Below, in pieces: positions 2,034 through 45,687 of a stretch of DNA of 64,000 bases. The translations under genes were made by a program, and so were the position numbers. The notes beneath the pieces were generated by a model, which saw nothing but the letters and a program-made list of their open reading frames with translations, had not been told where the DNA came from and ran no database searches. The stretch is from NCBI GenBank assembly GCA_041665265.1, contig JBAYJE010000001.1:35081-99080 (forward strand), read 5' to 3'. Source of the DNA: Minisyncoccota bacterium (GTDB lineage: Bacteria > Patescibacteriota > Minisyncoccia > UBA6257 > GWB1-50-10). Within the stretch, counting starts at the first letter, position 1. Every line of letters begins with the position of its first letter.

Positions 2034-2822
2034 TTGTATCTTATGAAAAATAAATCATTTAAAGTGATAGCCACAGTCGCATTTCTTCTTGTCGGTATTT
2101 TAGGATTTCTTAAGTTCACTGGCGCCGATCTTCTAACTCAGATGGCAAATGGCGGCATGCCACTTCTTCTTCTTGTAACCATCTCGGCACTTCTTGATAG
2201 CATCAATCCATGCGCGTTCTCAATTCTTCTTCTTACCATCGCATTTCTTTTTAGCATGGGAGAATTGAAGAAAAAGGTTCTCGTGATTGGATCGATGTAT
2301 ATTGCAGGAGTATTTGCGGTATATGTGTTAATAGGGCTCGGAATTTTGAGAACGCTTTCCTTCTTTAATATCCCCGGGTTTATGGGAAAGATAGGTGCTT
2401 CGCTCATTATTGTGCTCGGCATTCTCGATCTCGTGAACACCTATTTCCCTGCATTTCCGATTAAATTGAAAATTCCTACCGGATCGCATAAGACAATGGC
2501 GATACTTATGGAAAAGAGCTCGGTGCCTGCCGCATTTCTTCTTGGTGTATTTGTGGGATTGTGTGAATTTCCATGCACGGGAGGCCCTTATCTCCTTATT
2601 TTGGGATTATTACATGATACGCGTACGTATATAGTGGGCTTGGAATACTTATTGTATTACAATCTTATTTTCATTTTGCCACTCATCGTAATTCTTCTTA
2701 TTTCATCGAATCCGTTACTTCTTCAGAAAGTACAGGCGTGGAAGAGTTCAAGTACGGGAGATATGAGATTTGCGAGCGGCATCCTCATGATTCTTCTTGG
2801 TGTTATCATCTTTTTGCTTTAG
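2034..2822 (+). CDS. ccdA: Cytochrome c biogenesis / thiol-disulfide transporter CcdA (DsbD transmembrane family)
   Basis: Polytopic membrane protein with two conserved Cys-Pro-containing motifs (LDSINPCAFSIL and CEFPCTGGPYL) typical of CcdA/DsbD-beta. Confidence 0.75.
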   Translation: MYLMKNKSFKVIATVAFLLVGILGFLKFTGADLLTQMANGGMPLLLLVTISALLDSINPCAFSILLLTIAFLFSMGELKKKVLVIGSMYIAGVFAVYVLIGLGILRTLSFFNIPGFMGKIGASLIIVLGILDLVNTYFPAFPIKLKIPTGSHKTMAILMEKSSVPAAFLLGVFVGLCEFPCTGGPYLLILGLLHDTRTYIVGLEYLLYYNLIFILPLIVILLISSNPLLLQKVQAWKSSSTGDMRFASGILMILLGVIIFLL

Positions 2823-2861
2823 CATGTCGTACTCAAAACATAAAAATAGTAAACTAAATAT

Positions 2862-2945
2862 ATGAACCCCGTTAGAAATTCTATGGCAATAGAATTTCTA
2901 ATTAGGGTATCACAACAAATAAAATTATGAACATTTCTAACGGGG
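2862..2945 (+). promoter_or_regulatory. Leader element A: motif ATGAACCCCGTTAGA, 13-bp long-range inverted repeat (2867..2879 / 2933..2945) and nested local hairpin (2875..2898). uORF ending ATGA on the start of gene 2927.
   Basis: Read directly. The right arm covers codons 3-7 of the downstream gene. Confidence 0.45.
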
Positions 2946-3475
2946 CGAACGAAACAGATAAAAAAATGGAACAGCTCATGGCGAAGGTCAATGAGATGAA
3001 AAAAAGTGGTACCGTTGACCTTTCCCTTGAGGAAGATCTTTCGATTGCCATTATGAATTTGGTAAGTTTAGAAGAACACTTCTTCTTTACTGCAGAAAAA
3101 ACGAAAAAAGATGAATATTTCAATCTTTTGTCAGAAGTACGTGAAATTCGTAAATCACTTTTAGGGCGCATGATTGATACACACGAAGGGGAGACCTGGT
3201 GTATTTCAAAACATCTTCTTGCCGCTTCAATGCGAGTGATGGAAGTTGCTACAAAATTGCAGGGTGATGGAAAAAAAGAAGAGGCAAAGGAAATGTTTGA
3301 TAAGGCTTATCACCTTTATTCTATGTTCTGGGCACTTCGGTTAAAATTAATAGATTTGAAGGGAGTAAAAAAAGTCTCTGATAACGCGATTAACGTGCAT
3401 GACGAGAAGGGAACAAAAAAACCGTGGTCAGTCGAAGATATTGTGGAAAAGCTTGTAAATTGTTGCGATGAATAA
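2927..3475 (+). CDS. Hypothetical cytoplasmic protein (C-terminal CC motif), translationally coupled to the thioredoxin-like gene
   Basis: 182-aa ORF. Its stop overlaps the start of 3468..3863 by 8 nt. No recognisable domain. Its start codon sits inside the right arm of a 13-bp inverted repeat. Confidence 0.5.
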   Translation: MNISNGANETDKKMEQLMAKVNEMKKSGTVDLSLEEDLSIAIMNLVSLEEHFFFTAEKTKKDEYFNLLSEVREIRKSLLGRMIDTHEGETWCISKHLLAASMRVMEVATKLQGDGKKEEAKEMFDKAYHLYSMFWALRLKLIDLKGVKKVSDNAINVHDEKGTKKPWSVEDIVEKLVNCCDE

Positions 3476-3863
3476 TCAAATGAAAAGTATTGCGGTCACC
3501 TTAGGACTTATCGTGGGAGCACTCTTATTTATTTGGGGTCTCTGGTACATTACACAACCAAAAAAACCAACTGGAAATCTTGTGCCATTTGCACAATGTC
3601 TTGCAGAGAAAAAAGTAACTATGTACGGAGCGTATTGGTGTAGTCATTGTAAAACACAAAAAGCACTTTTTGGTGATTCGATTGTTTATGTGCCTTACGT
3701 GGAATGCACCGAAAATCCAAAACTTTGTGAAGCAAAAGGAGTACAAGGATATCCGACATGGATTGTTCCGAGTGATGGTGGCGACAAGAAGCTTTCTGGG
3801 GGGCAGAGCCTTGAAACGCTTGCTAAAGAAAGCGGATGTATTCTCCCGCCTTTAGAAGATTAA
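3468..3863 (+). CDS. Membrane-anchored thioredoxin-like protein of the VKOR-associated Trx family
   Basis: N-terminal TM anchor, then MYGAYWCSHCKTQKALFG...VPYVEC...C...GYPTW, the signature of the Trx-like domain normally fused to bacterial VKOR. Confidence 0.7.
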   Translation: MNNQMKSIAVTLGLIVGALLFIWGLWYITQPKKPTGNLVPFAQCLAEKKVTMYGAYWCSHCKTQKALFGDSIVYVPYVECTENPKLCEAKGVQGYPTWIVPSDGGDKKLSGGQSLETLAKESGCILPPLED

Positions 3864-5156: not shown

Positions 5157-7598
5157 ATGACAAAAGAAACATCAGGTGCGTTGATAAAATGGTTTGCGGA
5201 TACTGGTATTGAGGATGTACCACATGTAGGAGGGAAGAACGCGGCACTTGGTGAAATGTACGCAAATCTTGTGCCACTTGGTGTAAATATTCCTGATGGA
5301 TTTGCGCTTACCGCAGAAGCATATCGTTTCTTTTTTGAGAAAACAGGTCTCGACAAGCAGGTGCGCGAGATTCTCTCTGATCTTGATACGCATAATCTTC
5401 GTAATCTTCAGGTGCGCGCGAAGAAGGTGAGAGAAGCAATTCTTGCTGCGGAGCTCCCACCCTCATTAAATGAGGCACTCACGAAGGCGTATGCAACGAT
5501 GGAAGAGAAGTATGGGAAAGATATTGATGTAGCAGTGCGCTCTTCTGCAACTGCTGAAGATCTTCCGGGTGCATCATTTGCGGGTCAGCAGGAGACTTAC
5601 CTTAATATACGCGGCATTCGAAACGTGCTTTTTGCAACGAAGCGTTGCATTGCATCACTTTTTACAGATCGTGCTGTTTCGTATCGTGCGGACAAGGGAT
5701 TTTCCCATTTTGATACCGCACTTTCTGTAGGGGTGCAGCGTATGGTTCGTTCTGATGTTGCGTCTTCGGGTGTAGCATTTACTCTCGATACCGAATCTGG
5801 ATTTGATAAGGTGATAGTGATTAACGGTATCTATGGTCTTGGCGAATTTATTGTGCAAGGGAAGGTTATTCCCGATGAATTTGTAGTGTTTAAGCCAACT
5901 CTTGAAAAGGGATATAACGCTATTATCGCCAAAGATTTAGGAAAGAAAAATATTAAGTTAGTTTATGCCAGTCATGGTACTAAGCAGACCTCAGTGTCGT
6001 GGAAAGACGAACAGAAATTTTCTTTGAGTGATGCTGAAGTTATTACGCTTGCAAAGTGGTGTATATTGATCGAGAAACATTTTTCAGAGAAGAGGGGACA
6101 TCTTCAACCAATGGACATAGAGTGGGCAAAAGATGGACGTACGGGAGAATTATTTATTGTGCAGGCACGTCCTGAAACGGTACATGCAGGACAAGACAAA
6201 TCAATTTATAAAGAATATCGTCTTGGTAAAAAAGGCGAAGTGCGTGTTTCTGGTATTGCGGTAGGTGCAAAAGTTGCTTCGGGAAAAGTGCGCATTTTGC
6301 GCGATGCAAAAAGCATCAACACCTTTCAGAAGGGGGAGGTGCTTGTTACAGAAATTACCGATCCTGATTGGGAACCAATCATGAAAATCGCATCCGCGAT
6401 TGTGACCGATAAAGGTGGAAGGACGTCACATGCAGCAATCGTTTCTCGTGAACTTGGTATTCCTTGTATTGTAGGCACGCGAAATGCAACAAAAATTCTT
6501 CGTGGAGGGGAAGAAGTGACCGTGGACTGTTCTTCGGGCGAGAAGGGTGTGGTGTATGGAGGAGTCTTACCTTTTGAAGTATTGGAGCATCATTTAGACA
6601 CCATTCCTCGTATCAAAACGAAGATTATGGTAAATATCGGTTCTCCTGATGAGGCGTTTAAGCATCATTATTTACCAGTAAAAGGCGTGGGGTTGGGAAG
6701 GCTCGAATTTATTATCGCATCTCATATCAGAATTCATCCTAATGCGCTTATTAATTTTAATAAATTAAAACATGGCTCGAAAACATTTGCGATGCGCAGA
6801 ATGTTGAATGAGATTGAGAAGGCCACTCTTGGATATGAAGACAAGGCACAATTTTATGTAGATGAGCTTGCAGAAGGAATCGCAAAAATTGCAGCGGCAT
6901 TTTATCCTAATGATGTCATTATTCGTTTCTCTGATTTTAAAACGAACGAATATAGCAAGCTTATCGGAGGCGAGATGTACGAACCTCACGAGGAGAATCC
7001 TATGCTTGGATGGCGTGGTGCGTCGCGATACTACGATCCTAAGTTTAAGGAGGCATTTGGCCTTGAGTGTAGAGCATTTAAAAAGGTACGTGAGGAGATG
7101 GGACTTCAAAATGTGATTCCGATGGTACCATTTTGTAGAACCCCTGAGGAAGGAAAGAAGGTAGTTGATTCGATGGCAGAACATGGACTCGATCGCAGTA
7201 AGGACAAGAAATTGAAGGTATATGTGATGTGCGAAATTCCTTCAAATATTCTTCTCGCAGATGAATTTCTTGAAATATTTGATGGTATGTCGATTGGCTC
7301 AAATGATCTTACTCAACTCGCACTTGGTCTTGATCGCGATTCTGGAATTCTCACCCATATTGGAAATGAAAATAATGAAGCAGTAAAAAAACTTATTGCA
7401 GAAATCATTGCCAAATGTTTAGCACGAAAGAAGTACATTGGCATCTGTGGACAGGCACCTTCTGACTATCCCGCATTTGCACAGTTTCTCATCGAGCAGG
7501 GAATCGAGAGTATGTCCTTGAATCCCGACACGGTAATAAAAACAATTATGGCCCTTGGGAAGAAAGAGAAAAAACCAAAAGAGAAACCAGCTATTTAA
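5157..7598 (+). CDS. ppsA: Phosphoenolpyruvate synthase (pyruvate, water dikinase)
   Basis: 813 aa. N-terminal ATP-grasp (VGGKNAALGEM), swivel phospho-His domain (GGRTSHAAIVSRELGIPCIVG), C-terminal PEP-utilising TIM barrel. Confidence 0.9.
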   Translation: MTKETSGALIKWFADTGIEDVPHVGGKNAALGEMYANLVPLGVNIPDGFALTAEAYRFFFEKTGLDKQVREILSDLDTHNLRNLQVRAKKVREAILAAELPPSLNEALTKAYATMEEKYGKDIDVAVRSSATAEDLPGASFAGQQETYLNIRGIRNVLFATKRCIASLFTDRAVSYRADKGFSHFDTALSVGVQRMVRSDVASSGVAFTLDTESGFDKVIVINGIYGLGEFIVQGKVIPDEFVVFKPTLEKGYNAIIAKDLGKKNIKLVYASHGTKQTSVSWKDEQKFSLSDAEVITLAKWCILIEKHFSEKRGHLQPMDIEWAKDGRTGELFIVQARPETVHAGQDKSIYKEYRLGKKGEVRVSGIAVGAKVASGKVRILRDAKSINTFQKGEVLVTEITDPDWEPIMKIASAIVTDKGGRTSHAAIVSRELGIPCIVGTRNATKILRGGEEVTVDCSSGEKGVVYGGVLPFEVLEHHLDTIPRIKTKIMVNIGSPDEAFKHHYLPVKGVGLGRLEFIIASHIRIHPNALINFNKLKHGSKTFAMRRMLNEIEKATLGYEDKAQFYVDELAEGIAKIAAAFYPNDVIIRFSDFKTNEYSKLIGGEMYEPHEENPMLGWRGASRYYDPKFKEAFGLECRAFKKVREEMGLQNVIPMVPFCRTPEEGKKVVDSMAEHGLDRSKDKKLKVYVMCEIPSNILLADEFLEIFDGMSIGSNDLTQLALGLDRDSGILTHIGNENNEAVKKLIAEIIAKCLARKKYIGICGQAPSDYPAFAQFLIEQGIESMSLNPDTVIKTIMALGKKEKKPKEKPAI

Positions 7599-8134: not shown

Positions 8135-9139
8135 ATGAAAATAGGTTTTTTTGAGCTTGAGGGATGGGAAGAGAAAATAGTTCGCGAAACATTTTCTGGA
8201 CACGAGGTGCGATTTAGTAACATGAAAATTACTGAACAGGATCTTCCTCCACAGAATGATTTTGATGTACTTTCTGTATTTGTAGATTCTCGTATTACTC
8301 CCGCAGTACTCACGCATTTTCCTAGCGTAAAACTTATTACGACACGCTCCACAGGCTTTGATCATGTTGATGTGGCGGCGTGTAAGGCAAAAGGGATTTC
8401 TGTTGCATCGGTGCCAGGCTATGGCGACAACACTGTAGCGGAGTTTGCATTTGGACTCATGCTTAATCTTTCTCGTAAACTCTATCAAGCAATCGATCAA
8501 ATAAAAGAAATCGAATCATTCTCACAAAAAGGACTTCGTGGTTTTGATCTGAAAGGGAAGACGCTTGGGGTGGTGGGTACGGGACGAATTGGAAAGGAGG
8601 TAATAAAGATTGCAAAAGGGTTTGGTATGGAGGTAATAGCGTTCGACCCATTCCCTAATGCGGAAACAGCACTTGCTCTTGGGTTCACCTATTTTCCTCT
8701 TGAGGGCCTTCTGGGAAAGGCAGATATTATCACACTTCATTGCCCTTTAACCGATATTACCAAGCATCTTATTAATCGAAAGAATATTGGAATGATTAAG
8801 AAAGGAGCATATCTCATTAATACTGCGCGTGGTGGCATTGTAGAAACTGATGCGCTTGTGGAGGCGCTTGAAAAGGGGATTCTTGCAGGTGCAGGGCTCG
8901 ATGTGCTTGAGGAGGAGGGAGAGACGAAAGACGAGATGCGTTTTTTGAGTGAGAACACACCTCACGAAAAAGAACTAAAAACAATACTTCAAAATCATAT
9001 TCTTATGAATATGCCGAATGTGATTATTACTCCTCACAATGCCTTTAATTCGCAAGAGGCATTAGAGAGAATATTAAGTACCACACTCGAGAATATCGCA
9101 GGATTTATTGCGGGGACACCAAAAAATATTATTCCCTAA
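8135..9139 (+). CDS. D-isomer-specific 2-hydroxyacid dehydrogenase (D-lactate/glycerate dehydrogenase family)
   Basis: NAD-binding GVVGTGRIGKEV..., catalytic R/E/H arrangement. 334 aa. Confidence 0.8.
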   Translation: MKIGFFELEGWEEKIVRETFSGHEVRFSNMKITEQDLPPQNDFDVLSVFVDSRITPAVLTHFPSVKLITTRSTGFDHVDVAACKAKGISVASVPGYGDNTVAEFAFGLMLNLSRKLYQAIDQIKEIESFSQKGLRGFDLKGKTLGVVGTGRIGKEVIKIAKGFGMEVIAFDPFPNAETALALGFTYFPLEGLLGKADIITLHCPLTDITKHLINRKNIGMIKKGAYLINTARGGIVETDALVEALEKGILAGAGLDVLEEEGETKDEMRFLSENTPHEKELKTILQNHILMNMPNVIITPHNAFNSQEALERILSTTLENIAGFIAGTPKNIIP

Positions 9140-9243
9140 TGTATCCCGTAAGAAAATTAATAAGTATGAATTTTTCTAGAAAACTAAGATATTGTCGTAT
9201 GCGATTGTTCCTTGCCGAGGAATACAGACAGGTAATTTTTTAA
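9139..9243 (+). promoter_or_regulatory. Leader element C: motif ATGTATCCCGTAAGA starting a 34-codon uORF that overlaps the upstream stop (TAATG) and ends 4 nt before the eno ATG. Contains the 12-bp palindrome TTTTCTAGAAAA.
   Basis: Read directly. Confidence 0.4.
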
Positions 9244-9247
9244 CGAG

Positions 9248-10444
9248 ATGTATATAAAAGACATTCTTCTTCGCCAGATTTTTGACTCGAGGGGTGAGCC
9301 CACTATTGAGATAGGTGTACGAGATGCGGAGGGGTTTACTCATTATGCAGAAATCCCTTCAGGGAAGAGTAGGGGCGCACGAGAGGCGTCTGTGCTTAAT
9401 TTTGAGGAGGCACAAAAAGCAGTGAATCATATTAAAGAAAAGGTGGCTGCACACGATTTTAAAGGAGTGGGTGAAGTTGATGCATTTCTTCTTTTGCAAG
9501 ATCCCACACCTACCAAAGAAAAACTCGGTGGCAATGTACTCTTAGGTATTTCTATTGCAGCAGCACGCGGGTTTGCACATGCAGAAAAGAAAGAATTGTG
9601 GGAAGTTCTTCGAGAAGAATATTTTGGAGAAATTGAAAGTGATAAAGCTCCGCTCATTTTTTCTAATTTTATCAATGGTGGCGCGCACGCAAATAACAAT
9701 CTTGATATTCAGGAATTTCTTGTGATTGCACGAACGGATGATTCTATCGCGGCTACCATCAAAAAACTTATTGAACTTTATCGTGCGACGGGAGATTTTT
9801 TAAAGAAACAGTATACGTTAAAAATTATTCCTATTGGAGATGAAGGAGGATATTCCCTCGATTTTCCTGATAATAGTGAGCCGCTTGCTATGCTCGAGGC
9901 GCTTATTGATGAAAATGATCTTGAGCAAGAATGTATGCTCGGGCTTGATGTGGCCGCATCTCATTTTGGAGACAAGGGTGCGTATGTGTTTGAGAAAAAG
10001 GATTACACACGCGCAGCATTAGTAGGGCTTTATGAATCATATTTTAAAAAGATAAAACTTCTTTATTCAATTGAAGACCCCTTTGGTGAGAATGATCCCG
10101 AGGGATTCGTAGCACTTCGAAAAGCGGCGCCTAATAAGATAATAGTGGGGGATGATCTCACTACCACAAACCAGGCAGAGATTGAGATGCATACCGCAGA
10201 TGGTGCAGTGAACGGAGTAATTATAAAACCAAATCAGATTGGTACGATTTCTGAAACATGCGCCGCTCTTAAGGTGGCACGTATGCATGGTGCAAAGACT
10301 ATTGTCTCACATCGCTCGGGGGAAACAGAAGATGTATTTATTATTCATCTTGCAAAAGCAGCGAATGCTGATGGAGTGAAAATTGGAGCGCCTGCAAAGG
10401 AGAGATTATTAAAATTTAACGAATTAATTCGCTTGTATTCATAA
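9248..10444 (+). CDS. eno: Enolase (phosphopyruvate hydratase)
   Basis: SRGEPTIEIG N-terminus and SHRSGETED signature. 398 aa. Confidence 0.95.
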   Translation: MYIKDILLRQIFDSRGEPTIEIGVRDAEGFTHYAEIPSGKSRGAREASVLNFEEAQKAVNHIKEKVAAHDFKGVGEVDAFLLLQDPTPTKEKLGGNVLLGISIAAARGFAHAEKKELWEVLREEYFGEIESDKAPLIFSNFINGGAHANNNLDIQEFLVIARTDDSIAATIKKLIELYRATGDFLKKQYTLKIIPIGDEGGYSLDFPDNSEPLAMLEALIDENDLEQECMLGLDVAASHFGDKGAYVFEKKDYTRAALVGLYESYFKKIKLLYSIEDPFGENDPEGFVALRKAAPNKIIVGDDLTTTNQAEIEMHTADGAVNGVIIKPNQIGTISETCAALKVARMHGAKTIVSHRSGETEDVFIIHLAKAANADGVKIGAPAKERLLKFNELIRLYS

Positions 10445-26876: not shown

Positions 26877-26956
26877 GAGGCATCATTCCCCATCTTTCAT
26901 CAGCCGAGTTTCCGCAAAAGATAGATTATCCTCTCTCGAATAAAGAAGGAACGAAT

Positions 26957-26990
26957 AAGAGTGGACTCAAACCCCGCCTGCCTGGCGGGG
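26957..26990 (+). terminator. Intrinsic terminator after the FKBP gene
   Basis: CCCCGCC-tgcctg-GCGGGG plus TTTT. Confidence 0.6.
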
Positions 26991-27027
26991 TTTTCGAACA
27001 ACACTCTTCTTCTCCTTCTTTTTATTC

Positions 27028-27065
27028 TCCCTGCCTGCCGGCAGGCAGGCTTGCGGGGCTTTTGG
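27028..27065 (+). terminator. Second GC-rich palindromic hairpin (CTGCCTGCC/GGCAGGCAG) plus T-run. Convergent terminator region.
   Basis: Perfect palindrome CTGCCTGCCGGCAGGCAG followed by CTTGCGGGGCTTTTGGG. Confidence 0.5.
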
Positions 27066-27066
27066 G

Positions 27067-43971: not shown

Positions 43972-44075
43972 ATGAATCCCGTTAGAGTTTTACCAGCGGA
44001 GTATAAAGGAGATGGTAATATGAATACGATGAGTATCAAAAATAAAAAAGTAATATAAAAAAATTCTAACGGGAT
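43972..44075 (+). promoter_or_regulatory. Leader element B: motif ATGAATCCCGTTAGA, 11-bp inverted repeat (43976..43986 / 44065..44075) bracketing an SD-equipped 12-codon mini-ORF. Right arm contains the ATG of gene 44074.
   Basis: Read directly. AAGGAGA SD 7 nt before the ATG at 44020. Confidence 0.45.
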
Positions 44076-45687
44076 GAAAAAAGAACGAAAAATCTTTCTT
44101 GATAGATCTGAAGGACTTGATGCGGCCGTGGATAAAATTATCCATATGCCTGCTGACACTATTATTCTAAATATTCCTAAGGGCTCTGTACTTGGACTTT
44201 CCCCAAATAATTTTCGTGTGTTGAAACGAGAGAGTGAGACTGCGGGAAAAATATTCACTGTGGAATCGGTGGATGATGATATTCTTGATCTTGCAAAACT
44301 CGCAAAAATTGAAGCAATAAATCCAATATTAAGTATGCGAGAGCGGGCGGTTTCGGATATTGTAAGAAATGTTCCCTCATCGAGAAAAGAAATTCCCAAA
44401 AAAGAAGCCGCCGTTGCTGTTAAGAAGGAGGTGTTAGGAAAAGAAGAGATTCCCATCAAGAGCGAGATTTATAAAGAAATACCAGTACATAAACCGAAAG
44501 AGGAGATACACGAAGAAGAAATATCCTACGTAAATTCCTCACGAGGAAAAAGAGGATGGCTCTTGTCGCTTTCTATTTTTGCACTCGTCGTCATTGCGGG
44601 AGGATGGTACGCATATCGCGAGGCACCTCGTGTCGCGGTGGAAATAACTCTTAAGAAGGCTGAGATTCCTGTAAATCTTACTGTGCGGGTGAGCAAGGAT
44701 TATCACGAAGTAGGTGTAGAGGATAATGCAATTCTCCTTCCAGGGGAGCTTCTTGAAGCAAAGAGTAATCTCTCAATGGATTTTCCTGCGCAAGGAACGG
44801 AAGTAGTGACTGCACGTGCAAAAGGAAAACTTACTGTGTATAACGCATTTAGTTCAAGTCCACAGGGGTTGGTGGCATCTACGCGCTTCGAGTCTTCTGA
44901 GGGGAAGATATTTCGTCTTGATAAGCCAGTAATTATTCCTGGGGCAAAAGTTGTTGCGGGGAAAATGGCCCCCTCATCCATTGAAGTGAGTGTGACTGCG
45001 GACAATGCGGGACCAGAATATAATAATCCGAAGGAAGGGAGATGGACCATTCCAGGATTTAAAAATACTGCTAAATTTAGTGGGTTTTATGCAGAGGCAT
45101 CTAGTGTTATAGACGGTGGCTCATCGGGGGAGCGTGCGGTAGTATCTGCAGATGATCTTGCGAGTGCAGAGGAGAAGGTAGGTGATGCACTTCGCGCAGC
45201 TCTTGAGAGTCAGATGCTTCTTTTGAAAAATGAAGTATTTAAAACAGTTGATGGAAATACAGAATTTACTATTTTGAAAAAAGAGCCACAGCCAAGTGCT
45301 ACCGATAAAAAAATATTTGGAATGTTTATGGAGGGAAGATTGAAACAGCTTGTATTTGAAGAGAAGGCACTTAATGAGGCGCTCTCAAAAGTTGCAGGAA
45401 AGGGTCGTACTGGAGAGCGAGTGGCTGAGATGAAAGTGTCGTATGGAACGCCGATATTTGATTTTGAAAAGGGGACAATGGTGTTGAATGCAACGGGGAC
45501 GATTGTGTTTGTGGCGGATGTTGATGCAGAAGGGTTTAAAACGAGTATTCTTGGTGCGGACGAAACTGCAGTAAGAACGGCGGTGTGGGCGTTACCTGGA
45601 ATTGAAACTGCAAAGGCATCTTTTAGTCCATTTTGGGTTCATCGTGCACCTACAAATCCAGCGAAGGTAAAAGTGACTATTCAGTAG
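44074..45687 (+). CDS. Bitopic membrane protein: about 170-aa cytoplasmic domain, E/K-rich linker, one TM, about 350-aa extracytoplasmic domain
   Basis: Single hydrophobic helix WLLSLSIFALVVIAGGWYAY. No SD. Start codon embedded in an 11-bp inverted-repeat arm. Confidence 0.5.
   Translation: MKKERKIFLDRSEGLDAAVDKIIHMPADTIILNIPKGSVLGLSPNNFRVLKRESETAGKIFTVESVDDDILDLAKLAKIEAINPILSMRERAVSDIVRNVPSSRKEIPKKEAAVAVKKEVLGKEEIPIKSEIYKEIPVHKPKEEIHEEEISYVNSSRGKRGWLLSLSIFALVVIAGGWYAYREAPRVAVEITLKKAEIPVNLTVRVSKDYHEVGVEDNAILLPGELLEAKSNLSMDFPAQGTEVVTARAKGKLTVYNAFSSSPQGLVASTRFESSEGKIFRLDKPVIIPGAKVVAGKMAPSSIEVSVTADNAGPEYNNPKEGRWTIPGFKNTAKFSGFYAEASSVIDGGSSGERAVVSADDLASAEEKVGDALRAALESQMLLLKNEVFKTVDGNTEFTILKKEPQPSATDKKIFGMFMEGRLKQLVFEEKALNEALSKVAGKGRTGERVAEMKVSYGTPIFDFEKGTMVLNATGTIVFVADVDAEGFKTSILGADETAVRTAVWALPGIETAKASFSPFWVHRAPTNPAKVKVTIQ

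Follow-up and report, generated by a model that had tools for sequence, protein, structure and literature searches.

Three gene starts in a 64-kb stretch of contig JBAYJE010000001.1 from a Minisyncoccota bacterium (hereafter the window; coordinates are given with position 1 as its first letter, and its GC content is 42%) appear to have been invaded by short elements with inverted ends. The sites are the start of a gene of unknown function at 2927 (locus A), that of eno (locus B), and that of a gene at 44074 (locus C). Each of the three loci is very probably a fixed copy of a non-autonomous element that resembles a miniature inverted-repeat transposable element (MITE) and belongs to a widespread family. 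A preliminary description of the window had suggested either an attenuator or riboregulator or a family of miniature repeats aimed at gene starts; the latter was borne out by the inverted ends, the 4-bp duplications, the empty sites, at least 128 copies elsewhere, and an enrichment at start codons. Full-text literature searches on the arm sequences, on MITEs in Patescibacteria and related phyla, and on MITEs at start or stop codons returned nothing relevant, and we could not find the family described. Labels beginning with L and P (L006, P0023, etc.) denote compared loci and proteins, respectively, from other genomes or contigs.

Proteins encoded here carry the name Candidatus Paceibacterota, a Patescibacteria/CPR lineage, at NCBI. 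The genes of the window are densely packed, mainly on the + strand, and are usually separated by gaps of 2-15 nt; TTGAC-N17-TATAAT promoters and stem/T-run terminators are located in the longer intergenic regions. The 15-nt motif ATGWAYCCCGTWAGA has exactly three matches in the window (2862, 9139, and 43972, all on the + strand), as had been reported, and shuffled sequences average 0.6 matches even when two mismatches are allowed. The arm sequence TCTAACGGG occurs four times, compared to an expectation of 0.29, and these occurrences form two inverted pairs. A relaxed scan of the window revealed no fourth copy. The motif was found to be composite: an original start codon and second codon (ATGNAY) are fused to a left terminal inverted repeat, CCCGTWAGA. 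Inverted ends of at least 10 bp (YCCCGTWAGA...TYTAACGGGR) are present in all three copies, and the target duplications are 4 bp in length (TGAA at A, TGTA at B, and TGAA at C). Direct repeats span the start codon at A (ATGAAC...GCGAAC; GTGAAC in the sister species), B (ATGTAT...ATGTAT), and C (ATGAAT...ATGAAA), and, past the ATG, the second codon of the downstream gene is matched at 8 of 9 bases when the three loci are taken together. These two properties pointed to insertion with target duplication. The features of the three loci are:

2862..2866, + strand: original start-codon A of locus A (2862) and left duplication TGAA (2863-2866); it now starts an incidental upstream open reading frame (uORF), and the outgroup L012 has the uninterrupted ATGAACGAAAAC
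2867..2945, + strand: locus A element, 79 nt, C-G terminal type, with arms CCCCGTTAGAAAT (2867-2879) and ATTTCTAACGGGG (2933-2945) forming a perfect 13-bp inverted repeat
2872..2901, + strand: internal hairpin of element A, with a 13-bp stem (2872-2884 / 2889-2901) and a 4-nt loop, overlapping the left arm by 8 nt
2946..2949, + strand: right duplication of locus A, decayed to CGAA (TGAA in the sister locus L006); with the terminal G of the element (2945) it formerly gave the start codon GTG, for which the window now has GCG
2862..2930, + strand: uORF A, 22 codons, MNPVRNSMAIEFLIRVSQQIKL, the TGA of which overlaps the ATG at 2927
2927..3475, + strand: gene downstream of locus A, encoding a conserved Patescibacteria protein of unknown function (182 aa); its present start is within the element, and residues 3-8 (ISNGAN) derive from the right arm and the duplication
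3468-3863: gene matching only Pfam Thioredoxin (E = 4e-7) and, weakly, DSBA, with an 8-nt overlap with the gene at 2927-3475
9140..9143, + strand: left duplication TGTA of locus B; the A at 9139 is both the last base of the upstream TAA and the first of the original ATG (TAATG overlap)
9144..9248, + strand: locus B element, 105 nt, T-A terminal type, with arms TCCCGTAAGA and TTTAACGAG plus A; the eno start codon begins with the terminal A (9248)
9249..9252, + strand: right duplication TGTA of locus B, within the ATG TAT of eno (9248-10444)
9139..9243, + strand: uORF B, 34 codons, MYPVRK..., which is closed by the right-arm TAA and ends 4 nt before the ATG of eno at 9248
43973..43976, + strand: left duplication TGAA of locus C; the A at 43972 is the original start-codon A, and the outgroup L016 has TAACCATGAAAAGC with a 2-nt gap
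43977..44074, + strand: locus C element, 98 nt, T-A terminal type, with arms TCCCGTTAGA and TCTAACGGGA; the terminal A (44074) is the first start-codon base of the gene at 44074-45687
44075..44078, + strand: right duplication TGAA of locus C
43972..44058, + strand: uORF C, 28 codons, MNPVRVLPAEYK..., ending 15 nt before the ATG at 44074; the sister version extends to the right-arm TAA

The uORFs beginning MNPVR or MYPVR had been described with ends 0-15 nt from the downstream start and, at A, with a length of 22 codons, and both they and the perfect 13-bp inverted repeat at locus A (2867-2879 / 2933-2945) were reproduced. The nested hairpin at A was also found, and it is longer than had been noted (13 bp, 2872-2884 / 2889-2901); together with a degenerate second arm, TCTAATTAGGG (to 2907), it constitutes the “arm1-arm2” 5' hairpin module of the family. 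Long-range partners, which had been remarked upon at locus A only, exist at the other two loci as well: at B, 9143-9159 and 9233-9249 (17 nt, 82% complementary), and at C, 43976-43991 and 44060-44075 (16 nt, 94% complementary). The right arm of locus B in the sister locus L006 reads TTAACGGG. Element C additionally holds an internal AAGGAG and a 12-codon mini-ORF. Two statements about the gene at 2927 needed amendment. Its codons 3-7, said to be covered by the right arm, are themselves inserted sequence (ISNGA), and, for the neighboring gene that it overlaps by 8 nt, the designation “VKOR-type” is unsupported by the Pfam matches obtained.

Each element contains an internal TATGAAY (2917-2932, 9163-9171, and 44017-44025), which in element A belongs to a 16-nt direct repeat of the old start-codon region; these sites may be secondary starts that relay ribosomes toward the main gene.

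The case for insertion was made by comparison with junctions in relatives. All three elements are present in a sister species from the same metagenomic sample (L006/L007 and L014/L015; proteins 79-94% identical). The gaps at the three junctions of the window are 104-110 nt (104 nt at A), whereas junctions without the element have gaps of 46 nt at A and 7 nt at B in L009 (GCA_027423465.1), 45 nt at A in L012, and 2 nt at C in L016. In eno relatives at ~54% identity, only a few nt and no element separate the dehydrogenase gene from eno. The closest homologues of the product of gene 2927 are 176 aa in length, start with MNEN... or MEQN..., and lack ISNGAN. In silico excision of an element with one copy of the repeat restores natural junctions. 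Locus B then reads CCCTAATGTATATAAAA, in which stop and start overlap as TAATG; locus A then reads ATGAACGAAACA, in agreement with the length of 176 aa and the MNEN... starts of these homologues. These sequence comparisons show that, in an ancestor common to the two sister Paceibacterota species, three insertions occurred into A|TGNA|Y (the start codon and second codon). The old ATG stayed upstream, opening a uORF that reads the left arm as M-N/Y-P-V-R, and at the right junction a start codon was rebuilt from the last base of the element (A or G) and the duplicated TG.

Occupied and empty sites were also distinguished outside of these two species. A phage family has the empty site in L105 and L107 (GGGAGGTCAGTAT-ATGAACCTA, comprising a Shine-Dalgarno (SD) sequence and ATGAAC) and the occupied site in L025 (GAGGTGACTAT-ATGAAT[element]ATGAACCTA). 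Presence and absence were likewise found in the gene family of locus A (P0023 versus P0032).

Some observations at these same gene families are recorded here. The P0023 gene (L320:595-700) carries an independent insertion with the duplication TGGA, and its N-terminus reads ...VSNGVDTKEK, as opposed to MDTKEK in P0032. An older, decayed copy in the same gene family (L319:1420-1520; P0109) gives MKTSNGAS.... In L106:2120-2210, a phage relative of L025, a different insert of ~62 nt occupies the same junction with ATGAAC/ATGAAC flanks; its hairpin is of the type CATTGCGAGCC-GAAG-GCGAAGCAATC, and a similar hairpin, GATTGCTTCGGCGGCACTCGCAATGACA, is located just 5' of eno in L242:1-97. The inserts in L106 and L242 suggest a second small mobile hairpin family with the same kind of site.

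Further copies were sought with a two-arm scan (CCCGTTAGAN{55,85}TCTAACGGG) of one genome per species, in which perfect 9-mers and a gap of 55-85 nt were required. At least 120 loci with at least 128 copies were recovered. Among the 120 loci listed, record titles assign 64 to Patescibacteria, 17 to Desulfobacterota/“delta”, 15 to Planctomycetota, 7 to Omnitrophota, 3 to Nitrospirota, 3 to Gammaproteobacteria, and 3 to other candidate phyla, with 8 being unclassified; none of those listed comes from the phyla that dominate the databases. Chance matches would be distributed differently. The copies are ~43-105 nt in length and contain only short incidental ORFs and no transposase gene. Their ends are YCCCGTTAGA(AAT/AAG)...TCTAACGGGR, with the 4-bp target duplication directly outside. 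Because the base outside of the 9-mer is complementary to its partner in 116 of the 127 copies listed (77 C-G and 39 T-A), the inverted repeat is at least 10 bp; its perfect portion has a mode of 13 bp and a range of 10-19 bp in 125 copies.

A perfect 4-bp direct repeat adjoins the ends in 71 of the 127 copies listed, and in none of them in the neighboring registers. From these, the target was reconstructed as the palindromic R|TNNA|Y, with T at the first position of the duplication in 68/71 and A at the fourth in 63/71. The duplicated sequences vary, with both copies changing together (TGAA, TGAG, TGCG, TGCA, TTTA, TTGA, TAGA, TGGA, and others). A 6-bp duplication (ATGNAY) was also considered; its positions 1 and 6 agree in only 52% and 49% of the copies, respectively, whereas the inner four always do. 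In copies of the C-G type, the outer base is variable on the left but an invariant G on the right. Given this poor fit, the 6-bp model was replaced by a 10-bp inverted repeat with a 4-bp duplication. Copies within one genome may have a common interior (L134/L128/L192/L153, L138 with three, L221 with two, and L151 with three). Across lineages, only the ends are kept, plus, in many Patescibacteria copies, a second arm (NCGGGAT) that follows the first at a distance of 10-20 nt. In viral contigs (L025, L079 with two copies, L058/L085, and L026), the complete arrangement, [SD]-ATGAAT-CCCGTTAGA-...-AAGGAGG-TA-TCTAACGGG-ATGAAC, was also found 5' of unrelated genes.

The family has a marked relationship to start and stop codons, which were assigned with crude ORF rules. 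In 48 of the 127 copies listed (~38%), an ORF of 60 codons or more, starting with ATG or GTG, begins at the right terminal base itself. In 19 copies, the duplication supplies with its first three bases the stop of an upstream ORF; several of these were once ATGA overlaps, and both of their genes remain intact. Among copies with T-A ends, which yield ATG, 33 of 38 are located at a gene start, compared to 12 of 76 with C-G ends (Fisher p = 1e-13). Either a start-targeting subfamily or start-improving G-to-A changes, followed by compensating C-to-T changes in the other arm, would explain this bias. The 5' hairpin module or second arm is oriented with the gene in 20 and mirrored in 3 of 47 copies. 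In L138 and L221, in-frame insertions of 84 nt interrupt pilin-like genes within the GGG TTT ACN (G|FTLIE) codons and extend the leader that is cleaved off. There (L138:2943-3104, with two in tandem, and 6122-6199; L221:6335-7020), the G-F-T of G|FTLIE is duplicated, and the right arm encodes ...SSLTG before FTLIE.

The three downstream genes in the window had been described as lacking SD sequences of their own. No SD-like 4-mer was detected at any of the three starts; this is not distinctive, however, as only 16 of 55 crudely defined + strand gene starts in the window have such a 4-mer at -20..-5, making its absence normal here. Initiation in this organism appears to be largely SD-independent. 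Further, 19 of the same 55 genes begin with ATGAA, and start codons are thus abundant targets.

The identity of the elements in the window to those of its sister species is 86% at A, 94% at B, and 95% at C. By comparison, it is 50% (344/694) at the four-fold degenerate sites of five flanking genes, ~80% in flanking coding sequence, and 51-86% in other intergenic regions, in which promoter and terminator blocks alone are conserved. The contrast of 86-95% with ~50% implies selection, possibly for uORF-coupled translation by way of a stem in which the start codon is held. A metagenome search for the eno-linked copy returned the sister species only. The hairpin of element A displays one compensatory pair change (ATTCTAT/ATAGAAT in place of ATTCTAC/GTAGAAT in the sister). 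The ATGA end of uORF A is kept in the sister despite two offsetting 1-nt indels, between which the peptide is frame-shifted; in uORF B, 4 of 6 changes are nonsynonymous according to our reading of the alignment. Taken together, the mostly nonsynonymous changes in B and the frame-shifted peptide in A place the constraint on the nucleotide sequence, not on the peptide.

Scans detected no promoter or terminator on the + strand in or beside the three elements, which are therefore probably transcribed within operons. In RNA folding, the long-range stem is found in the minimum free energy (MFE) or centroid structure of all six orthologous copies, with z-scores of -1.3 to -5.3. In this predicted stem, which is closed by the arms, the start codon is paired at its first base or its first two bases. 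Two competing structures at locus A are nearly isoenergetic, namely the local hairpin (MFE, -22.2 kcal/mol) and the long-range stem (centroid, -20.2 kcal/mol). The competition is not kept in the sister species; there, the local hairpin is weaker, and the long-range stem coexists with a short nested hairpin. The right arm and start together read TC-TAA-CGGG-ATG-A, such that a ribosome meets the UAA four bases short of the start in one reading frame, stops at AUGA in a second, and reads through in frame in the third. Among 42 uORFs, 14 have the arm UAA as their end and 3 the AUGA; another 3 are fused in frame, and the remainder stop within 25 nt (5) or early (17). Ribosomes initiating at the old ATG, or coupled from the upstream gene, could open the stem and terminate at the right-arm UAA or the AUGA overlap, beside the rebuilt start. 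Downstream translation would in this manner have become element-dependent, which might account for a degree of conservation in the copies that exceeds that of the genes beside them. A present-day translational consequence of the elements is proposed with lower confidence than is their origin.

The observations above can be accommodated in several ways. The possibility that the MITEs have been domesticated, i.e. retained as intercistronic translational couplers or regulators in which translation of the uORF unmasks the start and selection acts on the entire RNA, is a serious one, though we hold it tentatively and stop short of calling it probable. It would account for the sister-species identities given above and for the compensatory change in hairpin A. 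According to our own mapping, 6 of the 7 substitutions in element B fall at predicted unpaired positions, and the seventh restores an arm pair in the sister. Also consistent with it are the terminal pair that stays complementary when the start is ATG (33 T-A versus 2 other), the 20-to-3 orientation bias, the uORFs that end at the arm UAA or the AUGA overlap or fuse in frame, and the survival of the ATGA end of uORF A through two offsetting indels. Less easily reconciled are the unpaired A/U-rich spacers, which are as conserved as the stems and would not be predicted by a stem-only model, the lack of a significant enrichment of open uORFs, and the stop position of uORF C, which differs between the two species; moreover, orthologous copies exist in two species only, precluding covariation statistics. 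A dedicated cis-regulatory leader that evolved in place (an attenuator, a riboswitch-like device, or a leader-peptide sensor, with MNPVR or the hairpins doing the sensing) would draw on the same geometry, which is real, on the near-isoenergetic structures at locus A, and on the N-terminus common to the three uORFs. That N-terminus, however, is a translated left inverted repeat, and the uORF peptides are not conserved. The same ends stand beside unrelated genes in many phyla and in phages, where they are accompanied by target duplications, and they are missing from the orthologous junctions of near relatives. Scans at gathering scores (the window and 18 family loci) and at a relaxed E-value (window positions 2700-3100 and six phage loci) matched no Rfam family over the elements, no + strand terminator was found at the three loci, and the sister species does not keep the hairpin competition. 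An attenuator or riboregulator is thus highly unlikely to have been the source of the feature.

HUH-enzyme hairpin repeats (REP/REPIN-RAYT or IS200/IS605-derived palindromes beside a fixed tetranucleotide) are suggested by the occurrence of the elements as long hairpins at gene junctions, by the absence of a DDE partner from the compared loci, and by the common TGAA flank, which could be read as a fixed target next to a similar element end. Yet IS200/IS605 and REP elements feature neither target duplications nor terminal inverted repeats; here, the flanking 4-mers are true duplications of variable sequence, and the reconstructed target (R|TNNA|Y) is palindromic. We consider an origin of this type to be very unlikely. 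The motif might also be a short GC-rich string that recurs by coincidence in AT-rich intergenic sequence, and a chance low-complexity match had been allowed for in the preliminary description. It is true that a short-loop version of the two-arm pattern (CCCGTTAGA...TCTAACGGG; at least 80 matches in viral contigs) was rejected as evidence for the family, these hairpins being mostly ordinary bidirectional terminators with A-run/T-run flanks, and that the 9-mer alone is consequently not diagnostic. Nevertheless, three exact 15-mers (0.6 expected), paired arms at all three loci, and at least 120 loci with register-specific duplications in a restricted host range render coincidence extremely improbable. 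Among other candidates that were discarded, integron attC sites have RYYYAAC 5' and GTTRRRY 3' of an imperfect palindrome downstream of a cassette ORF; in the present elements the order of the core sites is reversed (GTTAGA 5' and TCTAAC 3'), and they lie upstream of genes with target duplications. Translational bypass is not needed at a start codon, and no stop follows the take-off codon. Mimicry of a tRNA anticodon arm was without support.

Returning to the reading of the loci as fixed MITE-like copies with a possible translational role, a number of points count against it. The interiors of A, B, and C resemble each other no more than shuffled sequences do, and comparison with other family copies revealed no similarity beyond arm-like pieces; the family is thus defined by ~10-13 nt per end, which is unusual for recently amplified MITEs. 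Strong conservation combined with unrelated interiors argues that the fixed copies now act in a locus-specific manner. No longer element that combines these ends with a transposase gene was detected in ~2 Mb of compared loci. Simple targeting by sequence, even when joined with tolerance, accounts for the placement in the window only in part: its RTNNAY sites number 77 in intergenic sequence, compared to 6 free and 3 occupied start codons (~8 times more intergenic), and finding all three copies at starts is hence unexpected under sequence targeting alone (~1e-3 by our estimate). The conservation comparison was made with one species pair. The openness of uORFs is not clearly above background, with 14 of 33 being open, compared to 7-10 in control frames and ~33-37% of copies that are not at starts; with stop depletion in the uORF frame this weak, the uORF was taken to be a by-product, which may still deliver ribosomes. 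The proposed functional step is, for its part, plausible.

Mobilization would have been accomplished through cutting and pasting or copying by a DDE-type transposase acting in trans. Pairs of ends spaced 150-6000 bp apart with matching duplications proved to be separate small copies, and only 11 orphan ends were found. Some copies of the family read CCCGTTAGAAAGATA; the piggyBac end is CCCTAGAAAGATA. The family resembles piggyBac/IS1380 in having a 4-bp duplication with T first and A last and in its CCC-initial ends. The piggyBac elements duplicate TTAA, with TAAA, TCAA, and TATG as reported variants, and have CCC-initial ends; IS1380 is their prokaryotic relative and has been used as an outgroup (PMC10813416). 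Unlike TTAA, the target of the present family has two free inner bases, and an extra Y/R pair precedes the CCC; no transposase of the piggyBac/IS1380 type with these ends was found in the ~2 Mb of compared loci. Kinship with IS1380/piggyBac is offered as a lead only. We know of no parent insertion sequence for the family.

An arrangement in L134:2167-5033 (metagenome-assembled genome (MAG) DX4.bin27) bears on mobility as well. Two near-identical, inverted copies flank a 686-aa lipoprotein-like gene that is not a transposase. A further 20-nt inverted repeat (GTAAACATACAGAGGACTGA) is located just inside each copy, and the same flanks recur at contig ends (also in L128, L192, and L153). The whole resembles a composite transposon, or else a repeat unit of larger size.

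Several known systems invite comparison. Like the bacterial MITEs Correia/CREE of Neisseria, RUP of Streptococcus pneumoniae, and MITEAba12, the present elements are ~100 nt in length, encode no transposase, and have inverted ends and a short duplication; both occur in many copies per genome with insertion polymorphism, near or between genes, where they are co-transcribed and form a long RNA hairpin. The YCCCGTTAGA ends and the 4-bp T-N-N-A duplication match none of these three (Correia elements, for example, have a TA duplication and 26-bp ends). The family also differs in spanning Patescibacteria, Planctomycetota, Desulfobacterota, Omnitrophota, and phages, and in that a large fraction of its copies rebuild start codons. 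Rickettsia palindromic elements (RPEs) are likewise ~100-nt palindromic mobile elements that are tolerated in reading frames, a behavior seen here in the 84-nt in-frame pilin-like leader insertions and in the arm-encoded ISNGA/VSNGV at N-termini. RPEs are confined to Rickettsia and are found mostly within ORF bodies, whereas the present family is mainly at gene junctions (start and stop codons), and the two are not known to be similar in sequence. ERIC/IRU elements are also imperfect palindromes that are transcribed, intergenic, and present as unexpectedly conserved copies, and they raise the same question of selection versus selfishness. They are unrelated in sequence and reside in other hosts; ERIC copies are alike along their entire length, whereas copies of the present family within one genome region are alike at their ends only, with orthologues being conserved. 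Coupling by leader peptides, as in tap/repA of IncFII plasmids and in the coat-lysis junction of RNA phages, is similar only in how it works: translation of a short uORF opens a stem over the next start, and termination is a few nt from that start or overlaps it (UAA-N4-AUG or AUGA). Those leaders evolved as part of one gene, whereas here coupling would be a by-product of transposon insertion at unrelated genes.

Patescibacteria have tiny, gene-dense genomes and are thought to be poor in mobile elements. A broader proposition is that the family belongs to a superfamily of “junction-seeking” miniature transposons, the ends of which are built for harmless insertion at overlapping or abutting genes: the left duplication would keep the upstream stop, the last base plus the right copy would rebuild ATG or GTG, and the right-arm UAA would precede the start by four bases. 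After fixation, the copies would turn into obligatory intercistronic translation couplers or regulators under strong purifying selection, and the elements would spread among Patescibacteria, neighboring groundwater phyla, and phages by means of an IS1380/piggyBac-like enzyme that has gone unrecognized in these lineages. We regard this proposition as speculative and rather unlikely as a whole. With respect to annotation, a MITE family that sits on start and stop codons would escape gene callers, and it also causes starts to be set wrongly; the 182-aa protein gains six element-encoded residues, and some pilin-like leaders gain 28. The ends common to Planctomycetota, Desulfobacterota, Omnitrophota, and phage contigs could serve as a marker of gene flow within groundwater and sediment communities. 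If the conservation does reflect element-dependent translation, a selfish insertion would have been made part of operon expression in organisms that mostly lack SD sites.

A few other occurrences of the arms and related strings were noted. The 30-kb phage-like contig IMGVR_UViG_3300038429_000794 (L024:3240-4000 and L017:2490-2590) harbors at least six family hairpins, often with the longer arm GCTTGCCCCGTTAGA; some of its short-loop hairpins are apparently inside reading frames, and two are directly followed by GTGAAT starts. In a Saccharibacteria MAG (L167:4971-5130), arms CCCCGTTAGA and TCTAACGGGG flank a complete tRNA-Thr(CGT) gene, after which come a 3' tRNA-like fragment and a second TCTAACGGGG; a 5' tRNA-like fragment is located just before the left arm. 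The tRNA could be cargo of the element, or the insertion could have occurred within a tRNA gene array. A scan of the window itself detected no tRNA or tmRNA. In the convergent intergenic region at 26877-27066 of the window, there is a GC-rich palindrome, CCTGCCTGCCGGCAGGCAGG (27028-27051), and a near-identical string, CTGCCGGCAGGCAGG, is part of the interior of the family copy in L218.

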